Of a stretch of DNA of 64,000 bases, positions 9,694-32,400 are shown piece by piece. This DNA is from an uncultured Bacilli bacterium (GTDB lineage: Bacteria; Bacillota_I; Bacilli_A; RF39; UBA660). The translations under genes were made by a program, and so were the position numbers. The notes under the pieces are model-generated. The model ran no database searches. It was not told where the DNA came from and worked only from the letters and a program-made list of their open reading frames with translations. The stretch is taken from positions 53,731 to 117,730 of the forward strand of contig CAKOHV010000001.1 in NCBI GenBank assembly GCA_934086145.1, read 5' to 3'. Position 1 is the first letter of the stretch, and each line of letters begins with the position of its first letter.

Positions 9694-11010
9694 ATGAAAA
9701 AAATATTTCCAGACATAATTTATTTATTTATCTTTCTTTTATCATTTTTTATTACAACTAAAAAAGTTAGTTTCTTTTTATTAATCCTTTTTCTCCTTTC
9801 ACTCATTACAAAATTTATCTTTAATTTAATAACTAAAAACTATCACTATACGGAACTTCCTCCCTATAAAAAATCTGCCTTTTATCCTTTAATTTTTTCC
9901 CTTATCATTGCTATTATAGCTTTCTTTAACTATCAAAGTGACTTATCCCTTTTTAAATCCTTTGTAACCTCCCTTATCTATTACTTAGTTACTTTTTTAT
10001 TACTATTACCTCCTCATTTAAAATACTATTCTAAAGAAAATTCAGTTTCTAATGCTTTTGCTTTATCTTGTACCAAGACTATTTTCTTACCACAGGTTAG
10101 TAACTCGGAACTTTCCAAATTCTTAAAAATCCTACATTGTGCTAAGCTAAACTTAATAATCTGCTCTGATAGTGAACTTTCTCCTAAACTTACTTCGTCT
10201 TTTCAAAAAGTAAGTTATGCTGATTTAGATTTGTCGAAAAGACAAAATATTATTTTACAAGAGAACCAATTAACCGCCGAGCAAATTCAAAAGTTAACCG
10301 ACCATAGAAATCTTTACTATGTTAAGGATGAAGATTTAGCAACCAGTATTTCGCAAATAAAAAAAGCTCGTGGTATAATTGACAATTTAATTAAAGCGAC
10401 GAATCTAAATACTATTTTAACTAGTGCCTTATTTTTATCTATCATTTTTACGAGTTTGTTAGGTTATCCTATGCCTTTTAATTATCTCTTACTATTAATT
10501 ATCGGTTTTAAGAAAAATATCTTCCTTACTTGCTTTGCCCCATACTTTCGTTTTGATACTGATATTATGGAACGTTCACCTCGTCAAGAAAATGCTCCTT
10601 TTTATCTAAAACAAGACTTAATTCTTTTGGTAATTTCTAGTCTCCTAGTCACTTTTGCTGTAACTATTCCGTATATGGAATCTTTATCTGCTGGCGGCTC
10701 AGCTTCCTTAGCAACAACTTTAGCTTTAAATACTTACCTTTTTTGTTTCTTGCTTTTATCTCTTCAGAATGTTACGGAAAAGGTGACAATTCTAAATCTC
10801 ATAACTATCTATCAAGATCGCCATATGCTTCTTGCCATCATTATAACTATCATCGCCATACTTGCTTTACCTTATTGCCCTTTTATTGCCATCAAATCGA
10901 CTATTTTCAGTAACTATCTTCGTTGCTTTTTGGTTGCATTCTTCCTCTTAATTACTCTCGATTTAACCAAATTAGCTCGTTTTACCACAATTAGAAAGAA
11001 GGAAAAATAA
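9694..11010 (+). CDS. Degenerate, shortened P-type ATPase-like membrane protein (likely non-catalytic relic)
   Basis: Has a decayed phosphorylation motif, IICSDSELSPKLT versus canonical ICSDKTGTLT. Its C-terminal TM region aligns to the intact ATPase at 33127 (LGYPMPFNYLLLLI...DTDIMERSPRQENAPF vs FGYDIPLVAIQLLWLN...EKDVMNAKPRSTKESLF). The nucleotide-binding domain is absent and the protein is 438 aa. Confidence 0.5.
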   Translation: MKKIFPDIIYLFIFLLSFFITTKKVSFFLLILFLLSLITKFIFNLITKNYHYTELPPYKKSAFYPLIFSLIIAIIAFFNYQSDLSLFKSFVTSLIYYLVTFLLLLPPHLKYYSKENSVSNAFALSCTKTIFLPQVSNSELSKFLKILHCAKLNLIICSDSELSPKLTSSFQKVSYADLDLSKRQNIILQENQLTAEQIQKLTDHRNLYYVKDEDLATSISQIKKARGIIDNLIKATNLNTILTSALFLSIIFTSLLGYPMPFNYLLLLIIGFKKNIFLTCFAPYFRFDTDIMERSPRQENAPFYLKQDLILLVISSLLVTFAVTIPYMESLSAGGSASLATTLALNTYLFCFLLLSLQNVTEKVTILNLITIYQDRHMLLAIIITIIAILALPYCPFIAIKSTIFSNYLRCFLVAFFLLITLDLTKLARFTTIRKKEK

Positions 11011-11924
11011 TGATTAATTTAACTAAAAATATTACGGAAGCCACCTTAATTACCCATGGTGGAACTTTTCATCCTGATGATGTCTTTTCTAGCGTTTTTT
11101 TAAATAAAATATTTCCTAATTCCATCGTTTACCGCGCTAATTCGCTTCCTACAAAATTACGTGGTGACCAAATTGTTTATGATATTGGTTATGGTCGTTT
11201 TGACCACCATGGTCCTAATGCCCAAATGCGTAATGATAAAATAAAATATAGTTCCTTTGGTTTACTATGGAAAGAATATGGTCTTTCTTATCTAGCTAAA
11301 ATAACCACAGAACCAGCCAAACTTTGGCAAGTAATTGATGAAAAACTAGTTATGCAAATTGATGGCATCGATAATGGCAATTTTCCTAAAATCGAAGCTG
11401 ACTATAAACTAATGGATTTAGATAATGTGATAGATTTATTTAACAAAGCTTGGAATGAAGATGTTGATAATGATGAAGGCTTCAAACAAGCTTGCCAAGT
11501 TGCTGAAATCATCTTTGACCGTTTAATTTTGAAAGAAAAGGCTAAATTAACTGCACAAAAGCAAATTGAAAAACTAATCGCTCAAAATAATCATCAACCA
11601 ATCTTAATCTTAGATGAATATATGCCATACAATGATGCTTTATTTGATTCTGAAGACCCTTCAGCCCAAGAAATTAAAATCATTATCTTTCCTTCAAATA
11701 GGGGAGGATACAACATTAAACCACGAACTATTAGTAAGGATTCAAAAGAATTAGTTGTTAATTTTCCTTCCACATATTTAGGCTTAAGTAACGACGAACT
11801 AGCCCAAGTAAGTAACATTAAAGATGCTCGCTTCGTTCACATAAATGGCTTTTTAGCTTGTGCCAACACCTTAGATGCGGCCATCGCCCTTGCTAATCAA
11901 GCCCTTCACAACAAGGAAAATTAA
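11010..11924 (+). CDS. MYG1/UPF0160-family metal-dependent hydrolase
   Basis: N-terminal THGGTFHPDDVF...FDHHG motif characteristic of the UPF0160 (MYG1) family. Start overlaps the previous stop (ATGA). Confidence 0.7.
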   Translation: MINLTKNITEATLITHGGTFHPDDVFSSVFLNKIFPNSIVYRANSLPTKLRGDQIVYDIGYGRFDHHGPNAQMRNDKIKYSSFGLLWKEYGLSYLAKITTEPAKLWQVIDEKLVMQIDGIDNGNFPKIEADYKLMDLDNVIDLFNKAWNEDVDNDEGFKQACQVAEIIFDRLILKEKAKLTAQKQIEKLIAQNNHQPILILDEYMPYNDALFDSEDPSAQEIKIIIFPSNRGGYNIKPRTISKDSKELVVNFPSTYLGLSNDELAQVSNIKDARFVHINGFLACANTLDAAIALANQALHNKEN

Positions 11925-11968
11925 ATCCTTGTTTTTTTCTTCTTTAAACACTCTTTTCATGTTATAAT
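11879..11968. repeat. 90-bp perfect direct repeat, copy 1
   Basis: ggccatcgcccttgctaatcaagcccttcacaacaaggaaaattaaatccttgttttttt...catgttataat is identical to 12294-12383. It contains the last 46 nt of the upstream CDS and a TGnTATAAT promoter. Confidence 0.9.
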
Positions 11969-12293
11969 CCTGAATTTGACAGTTTTGAAGAAAAAAGTTT
12001 CACAATCCCTTTATTTATAAGGTTTTTGCTCCATTTAAAAAATGCGTACCATTGTATTTTTTTCAAACTTGATAATTTTTTTTGAAAAAAATTTTTGGAC
12101 ACATTGTTTAAAGCCTTATAAATAAAGCAAATTAGTATAAATTTAATAGTCAAGTGTTTAACTATGTTTAAATTTTAACATAAATTTATAAGTAAATCAA
12201 TGTCCGAATATGGTACGCATTTTGTAAAAATAAAGAAGTCCTTATTTTATGAGGCTTTGCGGGCAAAAAAAAGTTGAAACTGTCAAACTCGGG
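11969..12293. mobile_element. 325-bp non-coding element with ~20-bp imperfect terminal inverted repeats (core TTTGACAGTTT) and nested internal inverted repeats; MITE-like or small integrated element
   Basis: The 5' end cctgaatttgacagttttgaag matches the reverse complement of the 3' end (cccgagtttgacagtttcaactt). Internal inverted repeat aaaatgcgtaccat / atggtacgcatttt. Flanked by 90-bp perfect direct repeats. Confidence 0.4.
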
Positions 12294-12383
12294 GGCCATC
12301 GCCCTTGCTAATCAAGCCCTTCACAACAAGGAAAATTAAATCCTTGTTTTTTTCTTCTTTAAACACTCTTTTCATGTTATAAT
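12294..12383. repeat. 90-bp perfect direct repeat, copy 2 (carries the likely functional promoter for the 12408 gene)
   Basis: Identical to 11879-11968. Includes a pseudo 3' end encoding ...AIALANQALHNKEN* and the extended -10 tgttataat at 12375-12383. Confidence 0.9.
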
Positions 12384-12407: not shown

Positions 12408-15400
12408 ATGAAGAATAATAAAGAGGAATTCATAAATTATTTAATTACTGATGATGCTAAATCAAAAGAATTACTTTTAAACTTATTAGCTGAAAAAGAC
12501 TATCAATCTATTAAAAGTATAATCATGTCCCTAGACCGAATGATAAAAAAACAAGAGCTAAACAAGAATATTAAGGAAAACTTCTTATTTTTAATTGCTC
12601 AAAATATTGATGAAACAGATTTATTTGATGAAAAAATGTCTTTAAAAAAGGAATATAATTTTTTAAATGGCATGGAAATTGTCTTATTACAAAAATTACT
12701 TCGCCACAATTATCATTTTAATAGCGAACAATTAACCAACACTAAAGATGCTCTTTTACTAGAAATAATCAAATATCCTGATTCTCTTAATTGCGAAGAA
12801 GCCTTTAATATTCTTACGACCCGTATCCAAGATAAATCATTTACTATTGACCACTTTGCCGAAAGTGATATGTTAAATTATCTTAAATTAGCCAGTAAAT
12901 TAGCTAATCAAACCGGTGTAGAAGAATTAATAAATGATGAAACCTTCATTAGTTTATATAACTCTAATAACATCACTTTACCAACTATTTTATTAGCTTC
13001 TAATCACGTAAGTAAACCACGTTTAAAAATCATAACTGCGGATAAATCCAAAACTTATATTAAACAAAACCCTTCAATGATTGCGAATCTCTTAACTAGT
13101 GAAGAAGTTGCCATTCTTTGGCAAGATACCGACCTAAAAAATCTTTTTATAAATCACCAACTTCGTTATGACTGCCTTGATGCGAAAAGTCAAAAAAACT
13201 TACTTGAAAATATTGAAGTCTTTTCCTTATATTCCTTAAAGACAATCAAAGAATTTATCAAGGGCTATGAAAATAAAGAAGTCTTAATTCACCATCTTGA
13301 TTTTCTTTTCACTTATTTTACAGCCTTAAATAAAGAACCACTTGCTTATGATACCATCGATTCCTTTATTAATCTCTTTGATGAAGAAACTTTATTTATT
13401 ATCACGGATGATCCAAGATTTCCTTATCTGCAAGAAAGTATCATCCTCTACCTTATCAATAGTCTAAAACCATATTATCTTGAAAACTTTTTTACTAACG
13501 CTAAAGTTCATGAAGTTCTTTTAAATAATAAAAATGTTACTATTTATACTAAACTTCCCGTCAACATTCAAAAAGAAATTCTTGCTTCCTTAGATAAATT
13601 ATTATTAAATAACGTTAATCGTCAATTATTTTTAAATAGTAATGATGACTTAATTAAGAAAATCTTTAAACAAAATGATAATTTATACAATGAAATCTTA
13701 GATATCTGTCTTAATGAAAAGAAAGCCTTAACTTATCAAGAATTAAATCGCTTAATTAAATTAATGCCAAGTGAATTCTATGAAAAGTTAACTAATGAAG
13801 ATATTTATAAATTATCCGGTCCTACTATTATTGCTATCTTAGGTGATTCTAAAAATACTTTCCGTAAAGTCATATTAGATAATGAGATATTATGTTCACG
13901 TATCGTCAACTCAATTAATTCCACCAATATTACGATGATTCAAGCCTGTCTTTTAAAAATCACTGACCGCGAAAAAGTCTCTTTATTAACTAAAGCCCAA
14001 AACATTACCAATCCATATGGGGCCATTAGTATCATTAAAACTATGACAGATGAAATAAAAAAAGAACTTTATCAAAACCGTGCCCTTAAAAATCTAATTT
14101 TATTTAGTAGTTCCACTGATTACTTAATTGATAATTTAACGATTTCTTATCTTTTAGAAAACAAAGAATTAATTAGTAAATTATCAAATAATGCTTTAAT
14201 AGAATTCCTTACTTCTCTTAATTTAAAAGAACTAAATAACTTACTTAAAGAAGAAAGTATTCTAAGTAAAATTCTTTCAAGTGAAGTTGCTTATTCTAAC
14301 ATTATAACCTTATTGAACCATGATAATCTTTTACTTAGTAGTTTAATAAATAATCGTACTGCTAAGTATTTAGAAGCTACGACCTTAATTAAACTTCTAG
14401 AACAACTTTCCATTAATGATAAGAAGTTAATTTGTACGAATGAAGATGTCCTTTTAAAACTCTTCGATAATAATCAAGCTGTCTTAAAGACTTTTAAAAA
14501 TCTTTATGAAAAAAATAATTATCTTTTAGATAGTCTAGACTTAAAATTCTTAAATAGCCAAACTATTAAATTAAAATTTGCGCACCTCGAATATCTAACT
14601 AAACATAATGACTTACAACAACTCTTACTTGATATCTATCAAAAATATCCGTTAGATAATAAATTCCTTACTACTTTATTTAATAATGATGCTATTGGTT
14701 TTAATCATTCTCCTTTATCTAACATCTTAAAGACTATTGTTGAATCAATTGATGGTATTAATCGTAAGAAATATGGTAATTTCTTAAAAATATTTGCTAA
14801 TACTTCCTTTGCTAACTTATCCGTCTTAGAAATGAATAAAATAATAACTTATTATTTATCGGTTATTCCATGGCTTCAAACTAAAGAGGAGATAAAACGT
14901 CCGGCTGTAGTTTCTGTTCCGCGTACTTTAGAAGAAGTCCTTAACTATGAAGAAAACTATGCTAAAAATATTGAAGAAAAAATTCGTCTTAAAGATTATG
15001 ATAGTTACCAAGCCATTGTTTGTTTAAAATACTATAAAATGACCTTAGAAGAAGCGACTACCTTTATTAATCAATATGATGTAACTAAAATAACTGAAAA
15101 AGCTTATCAAAATGAAATAAATTTCTTACAAAATCTTAACCATTTCCTTCATCAATCAGAAAAAGAAATTAGAAAGAATAAAAGACTAAAAGAGTATAAA
15201 ATAACTGATATCTTTAAAATAAATAATCGTCTTCATGAATTATTCAATAAACTCTATAATTATGAATTAAACATCAATCTTAATAATTACCAACCACTTA
15301 ACGTTGCTTTATATGGTAAAGAAATTACTCTTTATGAACCAAAAGAAAAATTTACTTACTTATTAAGTTCAGTTAATCCGAAAAGAATGCTAAATTTTGC

Positions 15401-16184
15401 TGACTTTTTAAGTAGTTGGAATGATACCCTTGCTTCTTTGCCAAATGAGCAATTAACGGCGACACTTATTACTAATGATAATCTACATGTCTTTGTTCCT
15501 GAAGATATTAATTTTGGTTTTACAAAGTTAAATAATAATACTCTTGAAAATATTATCCTTCCTAATCGTTTTGGTCATTCTTTCTTTGCTTTGCCTCGTA
15601 CCTTAATCAATAATAGTTCCCAAAATCATAATCTTTTCTTCTTAAATAAGTATGAGAATAATAATCAAACCGCCAAAAATCCATATCTAACCCCTGATTA
15701 TCTTCTTTTATTTAAAGATTTAATCTTTATCGATGATGAAACTATTAAAACGGCTTACTTAGAATATGTCTATCGTACAAGTCAGTCTTTTAAAACTAAA
15801 AAAACACCAAATGGGTTACCAATTATTCTCCTCGATCGCCATAAAATAATTACTGACGAAGTAGGGGAATTAAAAGCATCTATCCTTGAATATAACGAAA
15901 ACCATAATGTTATTCTCTTAAAGAAAATTATTGAAAAATATAGTAATAATCAACTTGGTTTAGCATATTTTACTAATGAATTTCTTAATAAATTCGCTAT
16001 TCAAGAACTACTTACAACTATCGAAGAACGCTTAAAAAATTGTCATAACTTATCTGAACTAAATTTATTAAAAGAACTATTTACTGCCGAATTAACTAAG
16101 TATAACTATCTCAAAGACCCTGAAATACCTAATAAAATCCCTTATAATAAATATCTAAAAATAATCGAAAGTAAGTTAAGTTAA
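12408..16184 (+). CDS. Large (1258 aa) Leu/Asn/Lys-rich hypothetical cytoplasmic protein, no recognisable domain
   Basis: Uninterrupted 3.8-kb ORF with RBS AGGAG. No TM segments or catalytic motifs seen. Confidence 0.6.
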   Translation: MKNNKEEFINYLITDDAKSKELLLNLLAEKDYQSIKSIIMSLDRMIKKQELNKNIKENFLFLIAQNIDETDLFDEKMSLKKEYNFLNGMEIVLLQKLLRHNYHFNSEQLTNTKDALLLEIIKYPDSLNCEEAFNILTTRIQDKSFTIDHFAESDMLNYLKLASKLANQTGVEELINDETFISLYNSNNITLPTILLASNHVSKPRLKIITADKSKTYIKQNPSMIANLLTSEEVAILWQDTDLKNLFINHQLRYDCLDAKSQKNLLENIEVFSLYSLKTIKEFIKGYENKEVLIHHLDFLFTYFTALNKEPLAYDTIDSFINLFDEETLFIITDDPRFPYLQESIILYLINSLKPYYLENFFTNAKVHEVLLNNKNVTIYTKLPVNIQKEILASLDKLLLNNVNRQLFLNSNDDLIKKIFKQNDNLYNEILDICLNEKKALTYQELNRLIKLMPSEFYEKLTNEDIYKLSGPTIIAILGDSKNTFRKVILDNEILCSRIVNSINSTNITMIQACLLKITDREKVSLLTKAQNITNPYGAISIIKTMTDEIKKELYQNRALKNLILFSSSTDYLIDNLTISYLLENKELISKLSNNALIEFLTSLNLKELNNLLKEESILSKILSSEVAYSNIITLLNHDNLLLSSLINNRTAKYLEATTLIKLLEQLSINDKKLICTNEDVLLKLFDNNQAVLKTFKNLYEKNNYLLDSLDLKFLNSQTIKLKFAHLEYLTKHNDLQQLLLDIYQKYPLDNKFLTTLFNNDAIGFNHSPLSNILKTIVESIDGINRKKYGNFLKIFANTSFANLSVLEMNKIITYYLSVIPWLQTKEEIKRPAVVSVPRTLEEVLNYEENYAKNIEEKIRLKDYDSYQAIVCLKYYKMTLEEATTFINQYDVTKITEKAYQNEINFLQNLNHFLHQSEKEIRKNKRLKEYKITDIFKINNRLHELFNKLYNYELNINLNNYQPLNVALYGKEITLYEPKEKFTYLLSSVNPKRMLNFADFLSSWNDTLASLPNEQLTATLITNDNLHVFVPEDINFGFTKLNNNTLENIILPNRFGHSFFALPRTLINNSSQNHNLFFLNKYENNNQTAKNPYLTPDYLLLFKDLIFIDDETIKTAYLEYVYRTSQSFKTKKTPNGLPIILLDRHKIITDEVGELKASILEYNENHNVILLKKIIEKYSNNQLGLAYFTNEFLNKFAIQELLTTIEERLKNCHNLSELNLLKELFTAELTKYNYLKDPEIPNKIPYNKYLKIIESKLS

Positions 16185-17878: not shown

Positions 17879-17905
17879 AAAGACTAAATTAATTGAATTT
17901 TCTTA

Positions 17906-17975
17906 TTATAATCCTAAGTTTGATAGCTTCTTGCTAAAAAATTTTGCTATCCCTTTGTTTATAAGACTTTGAAAA
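17906..17975. repeat. Diverged partial copy of the left end of the 11969 element (including the ttataatcc junction)
   Basis: tattataatcctaagtttgatagcttcttgctaaaaaattttgctatccctttgtttataag aligns (~70%) with tgttataatcctgaatttgacagttttgaagaaaaaagtttcacaatccctttatttataag. Confidence 0.3.
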
Positions 17976-18075
17976 ATTTTATATTTCTAAAAAAATTGAC
18001 TTAATTAAAATATCCTATATAATAGTAAACCGACAAATAAAAAACATTTTTTGTATAAAAAGGGGGAACCAAAAA

Positions 18076-18966
18076 ATGAATGTTATAGCTACTTTAGAAA
18101 AAGAATTAAAAGATTGTATTTGGACACCTGATGAAATAGCTCGTTATCTTTATATAAGAAGTGGGGAATTATTTTCCTATGATCCACGCTATTTCTATGC
18201 CGATGATGATTTAAAAAGGGAAATTTTAAATCGTAAAATCGACTTAGAAAATGTTACTGATTTCCGTGTTGTTTGCACTAGTTGGGCTAGTCAAGTTTAT
18301 GTTCCATTAGTAATTGAGCTAGCTAAATTACCAGCTAAGGTTGTTAGCTTTAGCGGTCATAGTTATGCTGAGATTCCGAATATATCTGCTGATGCTTGTA
18401 GGCTAAATGACTTGGCTCGTATCAAAATGCGTCTTAATACTGAAGGTTATATCAAACCTGGTGATCATTCATTTGACCAGACTACCTTAGTCGACATTGA
18501 TCGCCGTATTCAATATATCGAAAACTACTATGCAACATACAAAATTAATGCCATCGCTCAAACACTCCGAAGTGAATTTATGCGCATCAATAATATCGTT
18601 GATAGCCATCGCCTTGACCAAAGTAAACTTTATGCTTACAAAATTGCCAAGTTAAAAACATTACTTGCCACTTTTCCGCTTGTAACAAGCTATGATGATA
18701 TTGATTTTGCCATTAATTACCTTGGTCGTAAACTATTTACCCTCGATGAACGTACAAGCATTACAACCTGCGAATTATACGACGAAAGATACGAAGATTG
18801 GAACTTTGCTAAAATATATTGCTTCAACTTATCAAATCGTTATGTCATTTATTATATCTTATCTAAGAAAAATGGTTTTTATACCTTTGAACAAGCTGAT
18901 TATCAAGGTATACATAATCTCTTAGATGCTTATCCCCGTGGTGGCGATGAAATAGCTTTGCATTAA
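18076..18966 (+). CDS. Hypothetical protein, paralog B of a tandem pair
   Basis: 296 aa, high identity to the 16997 ORF (about three-quarters by eye), with a duplicated promoter and RBS. Confidence 0.6.
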   Translation: MNVIATLEKELKDCIWTPDEIARYLYIRSGELFSYDPRYFYADDDLKREILNRKIDLENVTDFRVVCTSWASQVYVPLVIELAKLPAKVVSFSGHSYAEIPNISADACRLNDLARIKMRLNTEGYIKPGDHSFDQTTLVDIDRRIQYIENYYATYKINAIAQTLRSEFMRINNIVDSHRLDQSKLYAYKIAKLKTLLATFPLVTSYDDIDFAINYLGRKLFTLDERTSITTCELYDERYEDWNFAKIYCFNLSNRYVIYYILSKKNGFYTFEQADYQGIHNLLDAYPRGGDEIALH

Positions 18967-19989: not shown

Positions 19990-22900
19990 GTGAATAAAAA
20001 AGGTTTTACATTAGTAGAACTACTAGCTGTCATAGCCATTTTAGGTATCTTATCGGTCGTAGCTATCGGCGCTTATAGTGGTGTAACTAATCGTTCAAAA
20101 CAAAAAGCCTATGAATCCAAAGTTTCCCAAATTGAAACTTCGGCTGCCAAATGGGCTCGTGAAAATAATATTGACCGTACAACATCAGTTTCTGTTAATA
20201 AACTAGTCGTTGAAGGCTACTTAACAGCCGATGAAGCTACGGAAAATGGTTTATCAACTATCAAAAATCCTGTTAATAACGAAAATATGATTTGTAAGAT
20301 GGTTGAAATAACTTATAAGAATGGTGAAATCCAAACAAAATTTGATGCAACTAAAAACAATTGTAGCTTAGCTGAACAAGCCTTAAATGATACCCAAATA
20401 AAAGTTGTGGCCTATCAAAAAGGTGTGGCTGGGGCATCTGCGGCAATAAGTCCTAACTCAAACAATGCTTTAGCATGGACTAACAAAGCCTTAACTTTGG
20501 TTGTTTCAAGTGATACTTACAAAGATGAAGCCCAAAATTCTAAGGAATCAAATCCAGTTGTTGCCGTATCTTTTGACTTTAATGGTAGTACAACGGAAAA
20601 GACCATCGTCATCGATAATGCTAATCCATCAAATAAAAAATCTAATGTTTATACTGGTACTACTTATCTTGATGATACAACGACTTATTACAATACTTTC
20701 AATGTTGATGCCGCTGTTATCCTTGATAGTAATGTTGTTGTTTCATATCGTTTCAAAGATGGATCAACTAAATCTCGTACCATCAATGTTCGTATCGATA
20801 AAGAAGAAGCAACAGCTTCCGTTATTGCTACATCAGATTGGGTTACAGCCACCCAAAAAGTTATCGTTAAACTAGATGATGGTAATGGTAGTGGTGCTCG
20901 TCGCTTCTACGTTGGTGTTGGCAATGCTTATAACGATCCTGGAGTTCAAAAAGTTGACTTATGTGGTGCCAATGGTAAAAATTGTAAATATGAAAAAGAA
21001 TACAATGCTCCAAGTGTTGGGGAATACAACATTTGGACTGAAGATATGGTTGGTAATATTTCCGTCCAACCTAAAAATAAAATATCAGTCAATAACGTCG
21101 ATACTTCTACACCATCATGTAACTTCGATAATATCGGAACTATGGGTCAAAATAATTGGTATGTAACCGATGTTACACCACGTATGCGTACAAGCGTCGC
21201 TGGTAATAGTGGATTATACTTTGGTATTTCTAAAACCCAAAATGGTAAAGATAATCCTAACTATTCTAATTACGTAGGTTATGGTAGTGTAGGTATCAGT
21301 CAAGCGGCCAAACTAAGTGATACTAAGGGTCAAGATTACACTTGTTACGTTAAATCACTGGCTGGTACCAAGGCCCAAAAGAAAACTAATATCAAAGTCG
21401 ATACAACCCCACCAACTATTACCGTATCACCAACTAATCAATCTAGTAGTTACGTTAAAGAAAAAACTATTACGATTAAAGCCCGTGACACGATCAGTGG
21501 TTTAGGTAAAAATAGTCGTATAGAATACGCTTGGAGTACTGATAGCAATAACGAACCATCTACTTGGCAGACAGTTGCACTTCCAGGAACTGACTATACT
21601 GGCGAAAATGGTCCAACTGATGAAAAAACAGTGACCATAACCGCCAAAGGAATGACCGGTGTTTACTACCTTTGGATCAAAGAAGGAACTATTTCTGATG
21701 CCGCCGGAAACACTAGTCAAGGCCTACAAGGCAAATCAGCCCGCTACGGACCATATAAATTTGATAACACGCCCCCTTCTTGTGAGCTTCAAGCTGATGG
21801 TACTGTCGGTGATAACTCTTGGTATACAAGCAATGTCACTATAAGCTTTAAAACGCATAGTGATAATGATAGTGGCGTTAAAAACTATGGTATAAGTAGT
21901 ACAACCGGTTCTAAAACCGCTTCCTTAACTAGTGATACAAGTTCTAAAACTTATACTGGTTACATTGAAGATAACGCCGGTAATAAGAGCTCTTGTAGTA
22001 TTACAGTCAAAAGAGATGCCACTAAACCAAGTTGTTCTTTACAAGCCGTTGGAACAAAAGGCGAAAATGATTGGTATACAAGTGATATCACTGTTAAATT
22101 TAAAACTTCAACAGACGCTATGAGTGGTCTTGCTAAAAAAGGTATTGATAATATAGCTAATGCTGAAACACTTCATGTTACTAATGACAATACCGGTACA
22201 AAATATACTGGTTATGTTAAAGATAATGCTGGTAATATTGGAACCTGTGCAGCTTCTTATAAAATCGACCAAACGCCACCTAGTTGTAGTTTAAAAACAT
22301 CTGGTACTAATGGTGATAATGGTTGGTTTAAAAGTAATGTTACTGTTGAAGTAGCAACTCACACGGATGCTACAAGTGGTGTTGATGGCTATGGCTTAAG
22401 CACTAGTGGGGCAAACTATACTACTACTAAACTAGTTCAAAAAGATGATACATCCGGTGTAAAATATACTGGTTATATCAAAGATAAAGCCGGTAATAAG
22501 GCTACTTGTGGTCCGGTAACAGTTAAAAAAGATACTAAAGCTCCATCATGTAAATTACAAGCTAGTGGAACGCTTGGTAACAATGGCTGGTATAAAAGCA
22601 ATATTGTTATTTCTTTTAAATCTCCAACAGATGCGACTAGTGGAATTGCTGCCAAAGGTATAGGTGGCTTTGATAAAGCTGATACCCTAACTGTTGACTA
22701 TAGTACAAGTGGAACAACTTACTATGGCTTTATTAAAGACAATGCTGGTAATCAAGCAATATGTAATGCAGTATACAAAGTTGATAAAACTGTTCCAACT
22801 TGTTCAATTACAGCTAGTGGATCTTATGGCTGGAATAGTTGGTACAATTCAGATGTTGAAATTTCATTGAAGAGTAGTGGAACAGATTGGCCAAGTGGTA

Positions 22901-23853
22901 TTAAAAGTTATGGAATAGGTAGTACAACAGGTGCTACAAGCGCTAAATTGACTACTGATACTAAATCTAAAACATATACAGGATATATTGAGGATGAAGC
23001 TGGTAATATAGGATCATGTGCCGTTACCGTTAAAAGAGATACTACACCACCTTCTTGTACATTAAGCAAGACTTGTACAAACTCGGGCGAAAATGGTTGG
23101 TGTAAATCAAATGTTGGTATTAAATTTAGTTCTACCTATGATGCTATGAGTGGGGTAGATGGTTATGGTATAGGTGGCTATTATAACTATCCAAGAGAAA
23201 AAACACTAGATTACGACTCTGGAGCCAATGGTGTAACATATATTGGATATATTGCCGATAAAGCTGGTAATACAAGTTCATGTTATACAACAGCTTATCG
23301 TGATACAATTCCTCCAGCATCATCAATATGTTCATCTGGCTTTAGAGTAAGTGGAACATCTGGTAATTCCGGCTGGTACCGTTCCAGCGTAACATTAACT
23401 TCTACTAGTAGTGATGTTAATTATTTCAAGGTAAATGGAGCAAGTACAAAGTATTATTCTACTTATACAATGTCTAGTGATGGTAGCCATTCCGCTGCTA
23501 TAACAATTTATGATGATGCTGGAAATAGTACTACTTGTCCGACAAAATATTTTTCAATCGATAAAACATACCCAACCCTTTGGGTTTCCAATGCTGATAA
23601 TGGTTGTCCTGCCGGCGTAAATAAAACTTACCGAACCGGTAATGTTTACGATGCCACAAGTGGATTATCAAAAGCTGATTCTTCTTACCTTATAGGTGCG
23701 GATCTTGAACATGCCGCTTACAAATCGCCAGTAACTCCAAATGGAGCCCATTCTGGAAAAGAAGGCTTTTGCTCAGGAATTGGATCGTTGTATGCATCAT
23801 GGACTCTTTGTGATATTGCAGGTAATTGTACTTATGATTCAGGTTCATGGTAG
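19990..23853 (+). CDS. Giant (1287 aa) prepilin-type protein: type IV pilin N-terminal domain + ~6 tandem ~90-aa Cys-pair Ig-like modules + conserved Cys-rich C-terminal domain
   Basis: GTG start. N-terminus MNKKGFTLVELLAVIAILGIL is the prepilin peptidase cleavage/methylation motif (G|FTLVE). Repeats begin [TK]xPSC[ES]L[QK]A.GT.G.NGWY; C-terminal EGFCSG...CDIAGNC. Paralogous to the 24870 and 29475 genes. Confidence 0.8.
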   Translation: MNKKGFTLVELLAVIAILGILSVVAIGAYSGVTNRSKQKAYESKVSQIETSAAKWARENNIDRTTSVSVNKLVVEGYLTADEATENGLSTIKNPVNNENMICKMVEITYKNGEIQTKFDATKNNCSLAEQALNDTQIKVVAYQKGVAGASAAISPNSNNALAWTNKALTLVVSSDTYKDEAQNSKESNPVVAVSFDFNGSTTEKTIVIDNANPSNKKSNVYTGTTYLDDTTTYYNTFNVDAAVILDSNVVVSYRFKDGSTKSRTINVRIDKEEATASVIATSDWVTATQKVIVKLDDGNGSGARRFYVGVGNAYNDPGVQKVDLCGANGKNCKYEKEYNAPSVGEYNIWTEDMVGNISVQPKNKISVNNVDTSTPSCNFDNIGTMGQNNWYVTDVTPRMRTSVAGNSGLYFGISKTQNGKDNPNYSNYVGYGSVGISQAAKLSDTKGQDYTCYVKSLAGTKAQKKTNIKVDTTPPTITVSPTNQSSSYVKEKTITIKARDTISGLGKNSRIEYAWSTDSNNEPSTWQTVALPGTDYTGENGPTDEKTVTITAKGMTGVYYLWIKEGTISDAAGNTSQGLQGKSARYGPYKFDNTPPSCELQADGTVGDNSWYTSNVTISFKTHSDNDSGVKNYGISSTTGSKTASLTSDTSSKTYTGYIEDNAGNKSSCSITVKRDATKPSCSLQAVGTKGENDWYTSDITVKFKTSTDAMSGLAKKGIDNIANAETLHVTNDNTGTKYTGYVKDNAGNIGTCAASYKIDQTPPSCSLKTSGTNGDNGWFKSNVTVEVATHTDATSGVDGYGLSTSGANYTTTKLVQKDDTSGVKYTGYIKDKAGNKATCGPVTVKKDTKAPSCKLQASGTLGNNGWYKSNIVISFKSPTDATSGIAAKGIGGFDKADTLTVDYSTSGTTYYGFIKDNAGNQAICNAVYKVDKTVPTCSITASGSYGWNSWYNSDVEISLKSSGTDWPSGIKSYGIGSTTGATSAKLTTDTKSKTYTGYIEDEAGNIGSCAVTVKRDTTPPSCTLSKTCTNSGENGWCKSNVGIKFSSTYDAMSGVDGYGIGGYYNYPREKTLDYDSGANGVTYIGYIADKAGNTSSCYTTAYRDTIPPASSICSSGFRVSGTSGNSGWYRSSVTLTSTSSDVNYFKVNGASTKYYSTYTMSSDGSHSAAITIYDDAGNSTTCPTKYFSIDKTYPTLWVSNADNGCPAGVNKTYRTGNVYDATSGLSKADSSYLIGADLEHAAYKSPVTPNGAHSGKEGFCSGIGSLYASWTLCDIAGNCTYDSGSW
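21770..23310 (+). repeat. Array of ~90-aa Ig-like coding repeats inside giant pilin-like gene 1 (approximate bounds)
   Basis: Recurring PSC-x-L...NGWY...D..SG...YTGY..D.AGN..C modules. Bounds estimated by eye. Confidence 0.45.
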
Positions 23854-24869: not shown

Positions 24870-27800
24870 ATGCATAATAAAAAAGGTTTTACATTAGTTG
24901 AATTATTAGCTGTTGTAGCCATTCTTGGTATATTATCCATTGTTGCTATCGGTGCTTATAGTGGCATAACCAATAGATCAAAACAAAAAGCCTATGAATC
25001 TAAAGTTTCGCAAATCGAAACATCAGCTGCTAAATGGGCTCGTGAAAACAATATTGATCGTACAACTTCCATTTCTGTTAACAAACTGGTTGTTGAAGGT
25101 TACTTAACGGCTGATGAAGCAACTGAAAATGGTTTATCAACTATCAAAAATCCTGTTAATAACGAAAATATGATTTGTAAGATGGTTGAAATAACTTATA
25201 AAAATGGTGAGATTCAAACCAAATTTATTGATAATAAAAATAATTGTACGCTTGCTGAGCAAGCTCTAAATGATACGAAGATAAAAGTTGTTGCGTACCA
25301 AAAAGGGGTTACGGGAGCATCTGCTGCTTTAAGTCCTAATTCAAACAATGCCTTAGCATGGACAAACAAAGCCTTAACTTTAGTTGTTTCTAGTGATAAT
25401 TATAAAGATGAAGCCCAAAATAGTCGTGAAACCAATCCTATTGTTTCAGTATCCTTCGATTTTAATGGTAATACAACTGAAAAAAATGTTGTCATTGATA
25501 GTACTAATCCTTCTAAAAAGAAGTCTAATGTTTATACAGGTAACACCTATATTGATAATATTGATGCTTATTACAATGTTTTCAACGTTGATGCAACTGT
25601 CATTCTTGATAGTAACGTAGTTGTTTCATACCGCTTTAAAGATGGTTCAACTAAATCACGTACTATCAACGTTCGTATTGATAAAGAAGAAGCAACCGCT
25701 TCCGTTATTGCTACATCAGATTGGGTTACAGCCACCCAAAAAGTAATCGTTAAACTAGACGATGGTAATGGTAGTGGTGCGCGTCGCTTCTATGTTGGCG
25801 TTGGTAATTCTTACAATGCACCAGGCGTTAATAAAGTTGAATTATGTGATGCCAACGGCAAAAATTGTAAATATGAAAAAGAATACAATGCTCCAAGTGT
25901 TGGAGAATACAACATTTGGACTGAAGATATGGTTGGTAATATTTCCGTCCAACCTAAAAATAAAATCTCAGTCAATAACGTCGATACTTCTACACCATCA
26001 TGTAACTTCGATAATATCGGAACTATGGGTCAAGGCAACTGGTATATAACTGATGTTATCCCACGTATGCGTACAAGCGTCGCTGGTAATAGTGGTTTAT
26101 ACTTTGGTATTTCTAAAATTCAAAATGGTAAAGATAATCCTAATTATTCTAATTACGTTGGGTATGGTAGTATAGGTATCAGCCAAGCTGCTAAATTAAG
26201 TGATACTAAGGGTCAAGATTATATTTGTTATGTAAAATCATTAGCGGGTACAAAAACCCAGAAGAAAACTAATATTAAAGTTGATACAATTCCACCAACT
26301 ATTACCATATCACCAACTAATCAATCTAGTAGTTATGTTAAAGAAAAAACTATTACAATTAAAGCTCGTGATACTATTAGTGGTTTAGGTAAAAATAGTC
26401 GTGTAGAATATGCTTGGAGTACCGACAGCAATAACGAACCATCTACTTGGCAAACGGTTGCTCTTCCAGGAACTGACTATACTGGGGAAAATGGTCCAAC
26501 TGATGAAAAATCAGTAACCATAACCGCTAAAGGTATGACTGGTGTTTACTACCTTTGGATTAAAAAAGGAACAATTTCTGATGCTGCTGGTAATGCTAGT
26601 GAAGGCTCTCAAGGCAAATCAGTAAGATATGGTCCTTTCAAATTTGATAACACACCACCTTCTTGTGAATTGCAAGCTGCTGGTACTATCGGTGATAACG
26701 CTTGGTATACAAGCAATGTCACTATAAGCTTTAAAACGCATAGTGATAATGATAGTGGCGTTAAAAACTATGGTTTAAGTAGTATAACGGGTTCTAAAAC
26801 CGCTTCCTTAACTAGTGATATAAGTTCTAAAACTTATACTGGTTACATTGAAGATAACGCCGGTAATAAGAGTTCTTGTAGTATTACAGTTAAAAGAGAT
26901 GCTACTAAACCAACTTGTTCTTTAGAAGCTAAAGGAACCAAAGGCACAAATAATTGGTTTACTAGTGATATCACGGTCAAATTTAAAACATCAACTGATG
27001 CTATGAGCGGCCTCGTAAGAAAAGGAATAAATAGTATCAATAATGCTGATACACTACGGGTTACAACTGACAACACTGGTACAAAATATATTGGTTATGT
27101 TAAAGATAATGCGGGAAATGTCGGAACCTGTGAAGCAACTTACAAGATTGATAAAACAGCTCCTACATGTGCCCTTAAAGTTACAGGAAATCTTGGTGAT
27201 AATGGTTGGTATAAGAGTAATACTACGATTACAGTTGATACTCATACTGATGCCACAAGTGGTGTCGATGGTTATGGTTTAAGTACCAATGGTTCAATTA
27301 ATTATACCAATACTTACCTCACTCAGACTCTTGATACCAAAGGTGTAATATACACTGGTTATATTAAAGATAAAGCTGGTAATACGGCAACTTGTGGCCC
27401 AGTAACTATTAAAAAGGATAGTAAAGCTCCATCATGTCAATTACAGGCTTCTGGTACTAAAGGCGAAGACAATTGGTATGTAACTAACGTTAACGTTAGT
27501 TTCAAAGCTCCATCAGACGCCACAAGTGGTATTGCCAAAAAAGGTATTGGTGGTTTTGATAATGCTGATACTCTTACCATAAATTATGATACAACTGGTA
27601 CAACATATTATGGTTTTATTAAAGATAATGCTGGTAACTCAGCGATTTGTAATGCTACTTATAAAGTCGATAGAACTAAACCAACATGTTCATTAAAAAC
27701 AAGTGGTACAGCTGGTGAAAATGGTTGGTACCGAGGCGATGTTGCTGTCGAATTCGCTAGTTATAATGATTGGGCTAGTGGTATAAGTGGTCATGGTTTA

Positions 27801-29237
27801 AGTACTAACGGCACTGCAAATTATACTAATACCAAACTTACCCAAACTAGCGATACCACTGGAACAACATACACTGGCTATGTCAAAGATAATGCTGGTA
27901 ATAAGAACTCTTGTAGTGTTACAGTAAAAAGAGACACTCAAGCTCCATCGTGTGAATTACAAGCCAGTGGAACCGAAGGAGAGAATGGTTGGTATAAAAG
28001 TGGTATTACTGTTTCCTTTAAATCCGCCACTGATACCACAAGCGGAATTGCTCTAAAAGGTCTAGGTGGGTATTATGGTTCAGCTACAGAAACACAAAAT
28101 GATAATACAGCTGGCAAGAATTATACCGGCTATGTCAAAGACAACGCTGGTAATACGGCAACGTGTACAGCAACTTATAAAATTGATAAAACCGTTCCAA
28201 CTTGTTCAATAACAGCTAGTGGAACTTATGGTTGGAATAGTTGGTATATTACAGATGTTGCTATTTCATTAAAGAGTAGTGGAACAGATTGGCCAAGCGG
28301 CGTTAAAAGCTATGGTATAGGAAGTTTAGGTGGCGAAAAATCAGCTACTTTAAATTACGATACTTCTTCTAAAAAATATACTGGCTATATTGAAGATGAA
28401 GCTGGTAATACGAATTTTTGTTCTATTGAAGTTAAAAGAGATGCTACTAAACCTTCTTGTACGTTAAGCAAGTCATGTTCAACCTGGGGAGAAAATGGTT
28501 GGTGTAAATCTAATGTTGGTATTAAATTTAGTTCAACTTATGATGCTATGAGTGGGGTAGATGGTTATGGTATAGGTGGCTATTATAACTATCCAAGAGA
28601 AGCAACACTAGATTACGACTCTGGAGCCAATGGTATATCGTACTTTGGATATATTGTTGATAAAGCTGGTAATACAAGTTCATGTAGTACAACAGCATAT
28701 CGTGATACAACTCCACCAGCTGCTTCATTGTGTTCTACTGCTGTTAGCAAAAGTGGAACCCTTGGTAATGAAGGATGGTACAGGTCAGATGTTACTGTAT
28801 CTACAACAAATAGTGATATAAGTTACTTTAGATTAGATGGTCAAGCTAAAACAACGCTTACAACAGATGGCTACCACACAGTCACTTTATATGATGCTGC
28901 TGGTAACAGTAGAGAGTGTGATAAAATTAAAATCGATAAAACTAATCCGACTATAGACATATTGAGTTACGTACCAGCATGTCCAAGTGATGCTAAAGTA
29001 AATTATCGTATGGGGCATGTTACTGATGCTACAAGCGGTATATCTAAAAACTCATACTATTGGGTTGGTACGAGCAAAGATGACAAAAAATATTATCCAG
29101 GAGCAACTCCTCACGAATCAAATGAAGGCGTAGAAGGTTTTTGCTCGGGGAAAAACACTTTATATACTGCATATCATACATGTGATGTAGCAGGTAATTG
29201 TATTAATGGATCTTGGTCATGGGATACAACGCCATAG
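24870..29237 (+). CDS. Giant (1455 aa) prepilin-type protein, paralog 2 (~8 Ig-like modules)
   Basis: MHNKKGFTLVELLAVVAILGIL prepilin signal. The first ~600 aa are highly similar to gene 1. More repeat modules. Same C-terminal Cys-rich domain (EGFCSG...CDVAGNC). Confidence 0.8.
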   Translation: MHNKKGFTLVELLAVVAILGILSIVAIGAYSGITNRSKQKAYESKVSQIETSAAKWARENNIDRTTSISVNKLVVEGYLTADEATENGLSTIKNPVNNENMICKMVEITYKNGEIQTKFIDNKNNCTLAEQALNDTKIKVVAYQKGVTGASAALSPNSNNALAWTNKALTLVVSSDNYKDEAQNSRETNPIVSVSFDFNGNTTEKNVVIDSTNPSKKKSNVYTGNTYIDNIDAYYNVFNVDATVILDSNVVVSYRFKDGSTKSRTINVRIDKEEATASVIATSDWVTATQKVIVKLDDGNGSGARRFYVGVGNSYNAPGVNKVELCDANGKNCKYEKEYNAPSVGEYNIWTEDMVGNISVQPKNKISVNNVDTSTPSCNFDNIGTMGQGNWYITDVIPRMRTSVAGNSGLYFGISKIQNGKDNPNYSNYVGYGSIGISQAAKLSDTKGQDYICYVKSLAGTKTQKKTNIKVDTIPPTITISPTNQSSSYVKEKTITIKARDTISGLGKNSRVEYAWSTDSNNEPSTWQTVALPGTDYTGENGPTDEKSVTITAKGMTGVYYLWIKKGTISDAAGNASEGSQGKSVRYGPFKFDNTPPSCELQAAGTIGDNAWYTSNVTISFKTHSDNDSGVKNYGLSSITGSKTASLTSDISSKTYTGYIEDNAGNKSSCSITVKRDATKPTCSLEAKGTKGTNNWFTSDITVKFKTSTDAMSGLVRKGINSINNADTLRVTTDNTGTKYIGYVKDNAGNVGTCEATYKIDKTAPTCALKVTGNLGDNGWYKSNTTITVDTHTDATSGVDGYGLSTNGSINYTNTYLTQTLDTKGVIYTGYIKDKAGNTATCGPVTIKKDSKAPSCQLQASGTKGEDNWYVTNVNVSFKAPSDATSGIAKKGIGGFDNADTLTINYDTTGTTYYGFIKDNAGNSAICNATYKVDRTKPTCSLKTSGTAGENGWYRGDVAVEFASYNDWASGISGHGLSTNGTANYTNTKLTQTSDTTGTTYTGYVKDNAGNKNSCSVTVKRDTQAPSCELQASGTEGENGWYKSGITVSFKSATDTTSGIALKGLGGYYGSATETQNDNTAGKNYTGYVKDNAGNTATCTATYKIDKTVPTCSITASGTYGWNSWYITDVAISLKSSGTDWPSGVKSYGIGSLGGEKSATLNYDTSSKKYTGYIEDEAGNTNFCSIEVKRDATKPSCTLSKSCSTWGENGWCKSNVGIKFSSTYDAMSGVDGYGIGGYYNYPREATLDYDSGANGISYFGYIVDKAGNTSSCSTTAYRDTTPPAASLCSTAVSKSGTLGNEGWYRSDVTVSTTNSDISYFRLDGQAKTTLTTDGYHTVTLYDAAGNSRECDKIKIDKTNPTIDILSYVPACPSDAKVNYRMGHVTDATSGISKNSYYWVGTSKDDKKYYPGATPHESNEGVEGFCSGKNTLYTAYHTCDVAGNCINGSWSWDTTP
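26650..28720 (+). repeat. Ig-like coding repeat array inside giant gene 2 (approximate bounds)
   Basis: Eight modules starting PSCELQAAG, PTCSLEAKG, PTCALKVTG, PSCQLQASG, PTCSLKTSG, PSCELQASG, PTCSITASG, PSCTLSKSC. Confidence 0.45.
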
Positions 29238-29474: not shown

Positions 29475-32400
29475 ATGAGTAGTAAAAGAAGTCGTAGTAA
29501 AAATAATAAAAAAGGATTTACCTTAGTTGAATTGCTTGCCGTTGTTGCCATCTTAGGAATTGTATCTGTCATTGCCATTGGAGCATATAATGGAATTTCA
29601 AATCGTTCAAAACAAAAAGCTTATGATTCTAAGGTCTCTCAAATTGAAACATCAGCTGCCAAGTGGGCTCGAGAGAATAATATTGATCGAACAACATCCA
29701 TTTCTGTTAATAAATTAGTCGTTGAAGGCTACTTAACTGCTGATGAAGCGACCGAAAATGGTCTTTCCATTATTAAAAATCCTAAGACTAATGAAAATAT
29801 GATTTGTAAAATGATTGAAATAAGTTATAAAAATGGGGAAATTCAGACTAAATTCATCGATAGTAAGGACAATTGTACTTTAGCCGAGCAAGCTTTAAAT
29901 GATACTAAAATAAAAGTAATTGCCTATCAAAAAGGTGTTACTAAAACGGCTGCAGCTTTAAATCCAAACTCTAATAATATTTTACCTTGGACAAACAAAG
30001 CTGTAAGTTTAGTTGTTTCTAGCGATGCTTATAAAGATGAAGCCCAAAATAGTCGTGAAACCAATCCAATTGTTTCTACTTCTTTTGACTTTAGTGGTAA
30101 TAGTAACGAAAAGAAAGTTATTATAGATAATTCAAATCCTTCAAACAAAAAATCCAATGTATATTCTGGCAAAGCTTATGTTGACAATCCCGATGCTTAC
30201 TATAATGTCTTTAACGTTGATGCCAGCATTATTCTTGATAGTAACGTTGTTGTTACATATCGTTTCAAAGATGGTACAACAAAATCAAGAACTATTAATG
30301 TTCGTATTGATAAAGAAGAAGCTACAGCTTCTGTAATTGCTGAATCTGACTGGGTTACAAATACTCAAAAAGTAATTGTTAAAATCGACGATGGTAATGG
30401 TAGTGGAGCTCGTCGCTTCTACGTTGGAGTCGGTAATGCCTATAATGCTCCTGGAGTCGAAAAGGTTGAATTATGTGATAGCAATGGTAAAAACTGTAAA
30501 TATGAAAAAGAATATAGTGCTCCAAGTGTTGGTGAATATAACATTTGGACAGAAGACATGGTTGGCAATATTTCTGTTAATCCTAAAAATAAAATTTCTG
30601 TTAATAACGTTGATACATCTGTGCCATCATGCTACTTCGATAATATCGGAACAATGGGCCAAAATAATTGGTATGTAACAGCCGTAACACCTCGTATGAA
30701 CACTAGTACTGCCGGAATAAGTGGACTATATTATGGTATTTCTAAAGGAACCAATAATCCTAATTACAAAAATTATGTTGGGTATAATGCCGTTGGTACA
30801 AGTACCGCTGCCAAAATTAATAACGATACACAAGGTCAAGATTATACCTGTTATGTTAAATCACTTGCTGGTAATGAAGCTAAAAAGACCTCAACAATTA
30901 AAGTTGATACAACTCCACCAACTATAACAGTTAGCCCAACTAAACAAGAAACTTATGTTAAATCACAAAAAATTACCATCACAGCTAAAGATACAATTAG
31001 TGGTTTAGGTAAAAATAGTAAAATAGAATATGCTTGGAGTACTGATAGCAATAACGAACCATCTACTTGGCAAACGGTTAATCTTCCAGGAACTGACTAT
31101 ACTGGGGAGAATGGCCCAACTGATGAAAAAACAGTAACCATAACCGCCAAAGGAATGACTGGTGAATATTATCTTTGGATAAAAAAAGGTACTATAAGTG
31201 ATGTTGCTGGAAATAGTAGTGTAGGAAAAAATGGTAAGTCAATTAATTATGGTCCATTTAAATTTGATAATACTGCGCCAGAATGTGAACTCAAAGCCGA
31301 AGGAAAAAAAGGAGATAATGATTGGTATACTGGTAATGTTGAAATTAGTTTTAAATCAACTTCAGATGTTGGCAGTGGTGTTAAAAGTTATGGTATTAAT
31401 AGTACAACTGGTTCTGAAACAGCTTCCTTAACTAGTGATACAAGTTCTAAAACTTATACTGGTTACATTGAAGATAAAGCTGGTAATAAGAGTTCTTGTA
31501 GTATTATAGTAAAAAGAGACACTGAATCCCCATCATGTGAATTACAAGCAACCGGAACAAAGGGCGATGATGGTTGGTATAAAAGTGATATTAAAGTTTC
31601 CTTTAAATCAGCCACTGACAAAACAAGTGACGTTGATAAAAAAGGGATAAATGGTATTGATAAAGATGATACTCTTGATGTTTATACAGAAACCGACGAT
31701 AAAGGCGAAACTTATACAGGCCACGTAAAAGACAAAGCCGGTAATACTGGAACTTGTAAGGCAACTTACAAAATAGATAAAACAGCCCCAAGTTGTAGTA
31801 TAAAAATTTCAAGTAAACCAACTGGTAATAAAGATTGGTATGTAAGTGATAGTGTTACTATAGAGTTTGATGGTGACGTTACTGATGCCCGTAGTGGTGT
31901 AAGTGGTTATGGTTTAAGTAGTGATGGAAAAGCTAATTACAAAGATAACAAAATAACTCATACCGCAGATACTACTGGAATAACTTACATTGGCTATGCT
32001 ATAGATAAAGCCGGCAATACGACAACATGCGGTTCGGTTACCTTTAAAAAAGATTCAACAAAACCTTCTTGCTCATTAAAAACAAATTGCTCAGCTATTG
32101 GGACGCAAGTAAGTGATACAACAGACAAATATTGGTGCAAGTCAAGTACCGTAGACGTTGAATTTGCTACGACAAATGACGCTACTAGTGGGATTGTAAA
32201 AAAAGTTATAAGCACTGAAGGTGAAGCTGAAGCTAAAGATAGTATTTTTAGCAATATTCCTGATACAGGGGCTAACGGTAAAAGTTATACAGGTTTTGTG
32301 GAAGATGAAGCTGGTCATAAAGCCGATTGTAAGTTAACTGTTTATAAAGATTCAGTTGCTCCGGCAGAATCTTTATGCACCAGTACTAAGCTTAAAGAAA

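Follow-up and report, generated by a model that had tools for sequence, protein, structure and literature searches.

A probable miniature derivative of an IS1634-family insertion sequence between 90-bp duplications in an uncultured Bacilli genome, and the joining of its full-length relatives to -10 hexamers

Introduction

Why should the end of one gene and the promoter of the next be present twice, on either side of a short palindromic segment that codes for nothing obvious? The question is raised by a 64,000-nt stretch of DNA from an uncultured Bacilli bacterium of the RF39 lineage (assembly GCA_934086145.1, contig CAKOHV010000001.1, positions 53,731 to 117,730), all of which was analysed and which is referred to below as the window. 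Between a gene of the MYG1/UPF0160 family and an open reading frame (ORF) of 1258 aa, a repeat search of the window finds a 90-nt direct repeat whose two copies (11879-11968 and 12294-12383) show 100% identity and have starts separated by 415 nt. The 325-nt segment enclosed by them (11969-12293) has a GC content of 26%, compared with 31% window-wide. It is bounded by 17-nt terminal inverted repeats that are complementary at 15 of 17 positions, contains several nested inverted repeats (I1, I4 and I18), and has a single ORF of 63 aa, with a TTG start on the minus strand, that shows no transposase similarity.

This arrangement had been described in a sequence-only reading of the DNA, and its coordinates, the perfect identity of the repeats and the nested inverted repeats were all reproduced here. 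The 90-mer does duplicate both the last 46 nt of MYG1 and an extended -10 promoter element, as that reading had it, and it also includes a terminator. Several origins were offered there for the segment, namely the footprint of an integrated element between attL and attR attachment sites, a miniature inverted-repeat transposable element (MITE), and an insertion mediated by tandem duplication. We find that the 325-bp segment is very probably a MITE of a ~1.95-kb IS1634-family insertion sequence (IS), recently inserted flush with a -10 hexamer and flanked by a 90-bp duplication of its target.

Filled and empty alleles

Alleles of the site were compared among contigs whose MYG1 protein is identical to that of the window. 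The site is filled in three strain contigs (L001, L003 and L010, the last of which ends within the element) and empty in seven (L002 and L004-L009). Empty alleles carry a single 90-mer that is followed directly by TAGTTAGAATAGGAG...ATG, filled alleles read 90 + 325 + 90, and the difference in length is exactly 415 bp (325 + 90). Because the independent assemblies L001 and L003 have the full architecture and seven others have the single 90-mer, the arrangement is not an assembly artefact.

The filled alleles of the window, L001 and L003 are identical across 4.7 kb of flanking DNA, with one base differing inside the element of L003. Empty alleles are separated from filled ones by 12-19 single-nucleotide polymorphisms in each flank of ~2-2.6 kb, and as many as about 20 distinguish one empty allele from another. 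An identical filled haplotype among diverse empty alleles fits one recent insertion in a single lineage of a diverse species, and it puts the recent date that had been suspected from the identity of the 90-mers on a firmer footing. The L010 contig stops ~57 nt into the element, exactly at the position of the single T/C difference in L003. This hints at further copies or variants in that sample and proves nothing.

The strain polymorphism also bears on whether the segment could be native to the locus, as a conserved structured regulatory region or a small-RNA gene from which promoter copy 1 would produce a long hairpin RNA. The predicted fold of the 325-nt single strand is a long, imperfect hairpin (-54.4 kcal/mol; z = -6.3, equalled by 0 of 100 shuffles), the promoter points inward, and the hairpin is kept over the three copies of the element described below, with a few compensatory pairs. 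Yet most strains with the identical flanking gene lack the element, its ends are transposon ends, and a long hairpin fold is expected of any MITE. Scans of the window against Rfam and for tRNAs returned no match, which excludes a known RNA family and also a tRNA-linked att site. A native regulatory RNA is therefore very improbable in our estimation, and a domesticated role for an element transcript, while conceivable, would be secondary.

Element ends and a parent insertion sequence

A left-end pattern was built from the positions common to the window element and a decayed fragment at 17.9 kb in the window (Table 1), and was scanned in a collection of species-representative genomes. It gave 18 matches, spread over nine metagenome-assembled genomes (MAGs) that are named 'uncultured Bacilli bacterium' and come from the gut of rabbits, goats and chickens. 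No more than ~75 nt separates 14 of the 18 from a contig end, a clustering that is the signature of a multi-copy repeat in short-read assemblies.

At three internal matches that are not full copies of the MITE (L012, L018 and L023), the left end runs on into an ORF of 578-579 aa. The ORFs of L012 and L018 match the NCBIfam model NF033559, 'IS1634 family transposase' (E 2e-103, 347 bits with a cutoff of 100), as well as Pfam DDE_Tnp_1. This parent-IS transposase has >8000 homologs at E < 1e-30 in public data, many of them on ~2-kb contigs and some carrying the NCBI names 'IS1634 family transposase [Mollicutes bacterium]' or '[Bacilli bacterium]'. Full-length copies of the IS measure 1953-1969 bp with one ORF of 576-579 aa. 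Their ends, CCTGAATT... and CCC(G/T)A(G/C)TT..., begin with C and carry TT at positions 7-8, in agreement with the C-----YT pattern of the family. Members of the IS1634 family are 1.5-2.0 kb long, contain one ORF and have such C-----YT ends in their terminal inverted repeats (PMC2266710).

Alignment of the window element to four full-length IS copies places the homology at both ends. The left ~85 nt are common to MITE and IS and comprise the inverted repeat, ATCCCTTTATTTATAAGG and AAAAAATGCGTA; the first 24 nt of the MITE are identical to those of the L018 IS, with 91% identity over the first 55 nt. The homology on the right spans ~80 nt, within which lie a TACGCA motif and, as inverted repeat, AAACTGTCAAAnTnGGG. 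The middle of the MITE consists of ~150 nt of unrelated AT-rich sequence in place of the transposase gene.

Two further 325-bp copies were recovered at unrelated loci. One of these (L062:1659-1983) is 95% identical to the window element, its match to the window being confined to the element itself, and the other (L015:56-380) is 74% identical with conserved ends. Scans of JGI metagenomes yielded 0 matches to the family left-end pattern and a single locus, L062, for a 24-mer specific to the MITE. A BLAST comparison of the element with the window found no second full copy and one 68-nt partial relative at 17898-17965. Phage and plasmid collections, searched with blastn, and viral contigs, covered by two exact scans with the element ends, held no matches. 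Other copies and empty sites are thus both present, the reverse of what the sequence-only reading had expected of a structured regulatory region (no other copies, and diverged flanking repeats in relatives), and its description of the segment as a small, non-coding, MITE-like mobile element is borne out by these copies, the empty sites and the IS-homologous ends.

The three bases adjoining the subterminal TGCGTA/TACGCA motifs show compensatory changes in the three MITE copies, as CCA/TGG, TCA/TGA and AGT/ACT (alignment columns 82-84/246-248; ~12049-12051 and ~12211-12213 in the window). This suggests that pairing, or symmetric binding of a protein, may be maintained at the subterminal repeats, though three sequences are too few to judge.

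The recurrence of the element bears directly on a second alternative, in which a replication or repair accident (a template switch or a tandem duplication) captured 325 bp of foreign DNA without any transposition. Such an event would account for a perfect duplication around an insert and for a window that contains no transposase. It would not be expected to produce this element again at two other loci, alike in its 325-bp length, its terminal inverted repeats and its architecture, nor to make >40 IS copies obey one junction rule, since chance would not repeat defined ends together with a target motif. We consider an accident of this kind highly improbable, and the insertion mediated by tandem duplication that the sequence-only reading had entertained falls with it, leaving transposition of a MITE as the preferred explanation.

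Target-site duplications

The 90-mer is a long, variable target-site duplication of the IS1634/IS1549 kind. Perfect duplications flank 10 full-length IS copies and measure 45, 47, 59, 63, 63, 93, 125, 184, 226 and 320 nt, each of them made of host DNA of a different sequence. In L012 there is an older, diverged repeat of ~164-173 nt. The other two MITE copies are also bracketed by long repeats, of 91 nt in L062 (89/91 identical) and of up to 308 nt in L015, where the repeat is cut off by the contig start. Many contigs that cross a full IS without a visible duplication were counted neither for nor against; assembly of short reads into chimeras over the 2-kb repeat, or insufficient flank length, is the likely cause in these cases.

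Long duplications have been known for IS1634 and IS1549 since 1998-99. The 2008 revision of the IS4 superfamily noted that the two 'produce long, variable-length DRs' (direct repeats) of 8-514 bp, with no mechanistic model proposed, and that most IS1634-family members make AT-rich duplications of 5-6 bp (PMC2266710). Duplications of 6 bp have been reported in other papers for other members of the family. As late as 2015, IS1634 was described as 'a poorly characterized family', in a paper that demonstrated binding of its transposases to the beta sliding clamp (PMC4549789).

The variety of the duplicated sequences decides against the attL-element-attR footprint, in which the segment would be a tyrosine or serine recombinase element, or the remnant of something like a cis-mobilizable element (CIME), integrated in the 3' end of MYG1 with the 90-mer as its att core. 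The repeats are perfect and direct, their position over the 3' end of a gene is one that many att sites of integrases occupy, and the empty site is single-copy, all of which this view would predict. A fixed att site is nevertheless incompatible with the unrelated duplications of 45-320 bp at other loci, where flanking repeats differ in both sequence and length. There is no integrase or other recombinase near the window element, its ends belong to an IS with a DDE transposase, and the phage and plasmid collections and viral contigs had produced nothing. Site-specific integration is accordingly very unlikely, and this part of the sequence-only reading has to be given up in favor of the target-site duplication of a MITE.

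Some IS copies have more complicated surroundings. Within the groups L039/L040/L043 and L041/L047/L052, the flank is common on one side of the IS only, or the flanks are shifted by 5 nt, and in many such contigs no duplication was detected. Either IS copies that recombined with one another or chimeric assembly of short reads over the 2-kb repeat could be the cause. Two full-length IS stand in tandem in the same orientation, ~200-350 nt apart, in L035/L037 (one contig), L059 and L061. One possibility is that the promoter-bearing duplication left by one insertion was targeted again; the junctions gave no simple nested pattern.

Junctions at -10 hexamers

The position of the insertions relative to host genes was analysed at junctions from several scans, collapsed to 45 independent sites. 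In all cases in which orientation is resolved, the IS end on the transposase-3' side, equivalent to the MITE left end at 11969, is joined directly to a -10-like hexamer. TAnnnT occurs at 42 of the 45 junctions, as TATAAT (28), TATACT (4), TACAAT, TATTAT, TAAAAT and TAGAAT (2 each), TAAACT (1) and TAAGAT (1), and the exceptions are TTTACA (twice) and TATATA. The per-position background in the same DNA is 4.5% for TAnnnT and 0.22% for TATAAT, and the enrichment, calculated on the first 44 sites, has a P of about 5e-52 for the former and 8e-61 for the latter. Counted back from the junction, the positional profile shows T at -6 (100%), A at -5 (95%) and T at -1 (93%), and in addition TG at -9/-8, which amounts to TGnTATAAT, the extended -10 consensus.

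Further promoter features accompany the hexamer. An upstream TG is found at 69% of the 42 TAnnnT sites versus 7% of random TATAAT in the same host DNA (Fisher 5e-22), and a -35 box matching TTGACA at >=4/6 positions, 16-18 nt upstream, at 50% versus 13% (Mann-Whitney 1e-5). Textbook promoters are among the targets, such as TTGACA-N17-TATACT in L029 and TTGACA-N17-TG-n-TACAAT in L031. Past the second duplication copy, translation signals usually follow, namely a ribosome-binding site (RBS) and, at a distance of 13-50 nt, a start codon. Judged from sequence, the excess of good -35 boxes marks the targets as functional promoters. It could stem from the insertion mechanism, or from the purging of insertions at TATAAT within genes.

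Two individual targets deserve description. The target promoter of L029 (GCA_964261755.1, 1.30-Mb contig), where the duplication is 226 nt long, precedes a tRNA operon (tRNA-Asp, Phe, Arg, Pro). At L050, the transposase-3' junction of the IS abuts the promoter TTGACA-CGAACACCTGTTCG-TGATAAGAT, which a lexA gene adjoins. Between the -35 and -10 boxes of this promoter lies CGAAC-N4-GTTCG, resembling the consensus of the Gram-positive LexA box, and this one IS copy may therefore sit behind an SOS-regulated promoter.

The opposite end of the IS has no flank motif, and the mirrored pattern fits just 4 of 40 flanks. As the motif is present at one IS end only, the specificity is one-sided. The hexamer belongs to the target and not to the IS, because the empty allele already has it, because each duplication copy contains it wherever both copies are seen, and because it varies among insertions of IS with identical ends.

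Taken together, these junctions raise the possibility that, rather than simply favoring AT-rich DNA, this lineage of the IS1634 family, its MITE included, is directed to active sigma-A promoters, with one end joined between promoter positions -7 and -6 and the second end 45-320 bp upstream, so that the duplication is a built-in regeneration of promoter and gene end that makes insertion almost harmless. We put this wider proposal forward tentatively and regard it as rather doubtful, with considerably less confidence than the identification of the MITE itself. Recognition of the -10 element could possibly proceed by capture of RNA-polymerase open complexes or by a sigma-like read-out of TAnnnT. 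In the searchable literature no report of -10 targeting was found; the original descriptions of IS1634 and IS1549 were outside that coverage and may contain a prior account.

A number of observations weigh against the overall explanation, the identification of the MITE included. There is no transposase gene within the 64-kb window, and a full-length IS was not demonstrated in the same genome or samples: the closest parent end, that of L018, belongs to a different MAG, and the transposases nearest to that of L018 (P0005 and P0009) come from other samples. Just three full copies of the MITE were recovered, each from a different genome. Selection against intragenic insertions could contribute to the promoter bias, although selection alone is insufficient because it leaves the exact flush junction unexplained. 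Finally, we know of no demonstration of a staggered-cut mechanism for long duplications in the IS1634 family.

Layout of the locus

Features of the locus are collected in Table 1. From the end of the second duplication copy to the ATG of the 1258-aa ORF there are 24 nt, with the RBS AGGAG in between. Nearly every gene of the window is on the + strand, and so are several very large ORFs (1167-1455 aa), at 12408-16184, 19990-23853, 24870-29237 and 29475-32978. The decayed fragment downstream is intergenic, before an ORF at 18076, and is followed by a separate canonical promoter, TTGACT-N17-TATAAT, at ~17996-18024. Evidence for a degenerate duplication of its upstream flank is marginal, with 25 of 500 shuffles scoring equally well.

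Table 1. Coordinates of the putative MITE, its target duplication and associated features in the window
Feature	Position	Strand	Evidence or remark
MYG1/UPF0160-family gene, upstream host	11010..11924	+	Pfam PF03690, E 9.7e-54; last 46 nt within the duplicated target
Target-site duplication, copy 1	11879..11968	+	Contains MYG1 3' end, 11879-11924
Terminator-like hairpin and T-run in copy 1	11910-11933	+	Hairpin scan
Extended -10 in copy 1	TG 11960-11961, TATAAT 11963-11968	+	Now points into the MITE
325-bp MITE, very probably an IS1634-family derivative without transposase gene	11969..12293	+	Strain polymorphism, IS-homologous ends
Left terminal inverted repeat CCTGAATTTGACAGTTT (I9)	11969..11985	+	Transposase-3' side of parent IS; abuts -10 hexamer
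Left subterminal repeat arm with AAAAAATGCGTA (I1)	12017..12052	+	Motif kept in all full-length IS left ends; probably a transposase-binding site or subterminal repeat
Right subterminal repeat arm with TACGCA (I1)	12210..12245	+	Kept in full-length IS right ends
Right terminal inverted repeat AAACTGTCAAACTCGGG (I9)	12277..12293	+	Matches IS right ends, AAACTGTCAAAnTnGGG
Target-site duplication, copy 2	12294..12383	+	Orphan MYG1 3' end, terminator and intact TGtTATAAT (TATAAT 12378-12383)
Terminator-like hairpin and T-run in copy 2	12325-12348	+	Hairpin scan
1258-aa ORF, downstream host gene	12408..16184	+	No Pfam match
Decayed solo left-end fragment, same element family	17913..17990	+	BLAST 75% over 68 nt spanning the junction; directly after TTATAAT 17906-17912
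Start expected for the ends of a cognate parent IS			CCTGAATTTGACAGTTTTGAAGAA

Proposed mechanism and consequences

An insertion of this kind could come about as follows. A cognate IS1634-family DDE transposase, supplied in trans from elsewhere in the genome, would bind both ends of the MITE. One 3' end would then attack the target strand just past the -10 hexamer of TGtTATAAT, and the other would attack the opposite strand 90 bp upstream, or at 45-320 bp in the relatives. Repair of the two resulting single-stranded gaps would duplicate the intervening 90 bp.

In the sequence as it stands, copy 1 leaves MYG1 with its final 46 nt and a terminator, and copy 2 leaves the 1258-aa gene with its promoter and 90 bp of the DNA upstream. 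Since the signals of both genes are kept in the duplicates, the insertion should be nearly neutral for both. What is left over is a spare promoter in copy 1, which faces the element, and, downstream of the element, a second gene tail with terminator in copy 2. Both promoter copies are predicted to be active, and transcription from copy 1 into the palindromic element is plausible. In the full-length IS the spare promoter lies antisense to the transposase gene and meets a hairpin and then a U-run. This left-end hairpin with its U-run was considered as a terminator against read-in transcription and proved a weak candidate, with a fold z of -1.5 to -2.8 and a simple terminator scan that misses the hairpin; in the MITE, a 10-nt deletion removes one of its arms.

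Two aspects set these elements apart from the known kinds, namely a MITE with a target duplication of 90-308 bp instead of a few bp and, apparently undescribed so far, a lineage that inserts flush at -10 hexamers. The long-duplication property evidently extends to an element of 325 bp in which nothing of the IS is left but the ends, so that these ends and a transposase in trans should suffice, which defines a minimal substrate. With the duplication fixed at the 3' edge of the -10 hexamer and its other end floating, an asymmetric model can be formulated and tested. The preservation of both neighboring genes and their signals suggests how a transposon may spread through genomes that are small and dense in genes while leaving the host viable. 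The same elements break short-read assemblies of gut Mollicutes and Bacilli MAGs at promoters, and the orphan promoters and duplicated gene ends that they create could mislead annotation.

Comparison with known systems

The closest known systems are IS1634 of Mycoplasma mycoides subsp. mycoides SC and IS1549 of Mycobacterium smegmatis. With these the present elements share a DDE transposase, a single-ORF parent IS (here ~1.95 kb), C-----YT ends, and long duplications that vary from copy to copy, of 45-320 bp here compared with the reported 8-514 bp (PMC2266710). They differ in their hosts, which here are uncultured gut Bacilli and Mollicutes-like bacteria, and in that the window element is a non-autonomous 325-bp derivative. 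The strict junction of one end with a -10 hexamer also sets them apart, no such description having been found in a literature search that did not extend to the original accounts of IS1634 and IS1549.

Bacterial MITEs such as the Correia elements, RUP and MITEAba12 are similarly small, non-coding and AT-rich, have the terminal inverted repeats of a parent IS and occur at several loci. They too duplicate their target, form long hairpins, and are intergenic and polymorphic between strains. Known MITEs, however, have target duplications of 2-10 bp, whereas those of 90-308 bp described here copy a whole promoter, terminator and gene end. In this respect the outcome is more reminiscent of integrative elements that rebuild the 3' end of a target gene (phages and integrative and conjugative elements at their att sites, and CIMEs), where the 3' end is likewise duplicated and the gene stays intact. 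In contrast to those att systems, there is no recombinase and no fixed att site here, and the duplicated DNA comes from the target rather than being borne by the element.

A more distant parallel is offered by yeast Ty3, a eukaryotic retrotransposon that integrates at RNA polymerase III start sites and is targeted via TFIIIB. Both systems take a fixed position relative to transcription initiation and avoid coding sequence, but Ty3 depends on TFIIIB, while direct DNA recognition or capture dependent on RNA polymerase or sigma are the candidates here. If promoter targeting is true, it would give the long repeats of IS1634 and IS1549 their first mechanistic anchor and provide a bacterial counterpart to Ty3.

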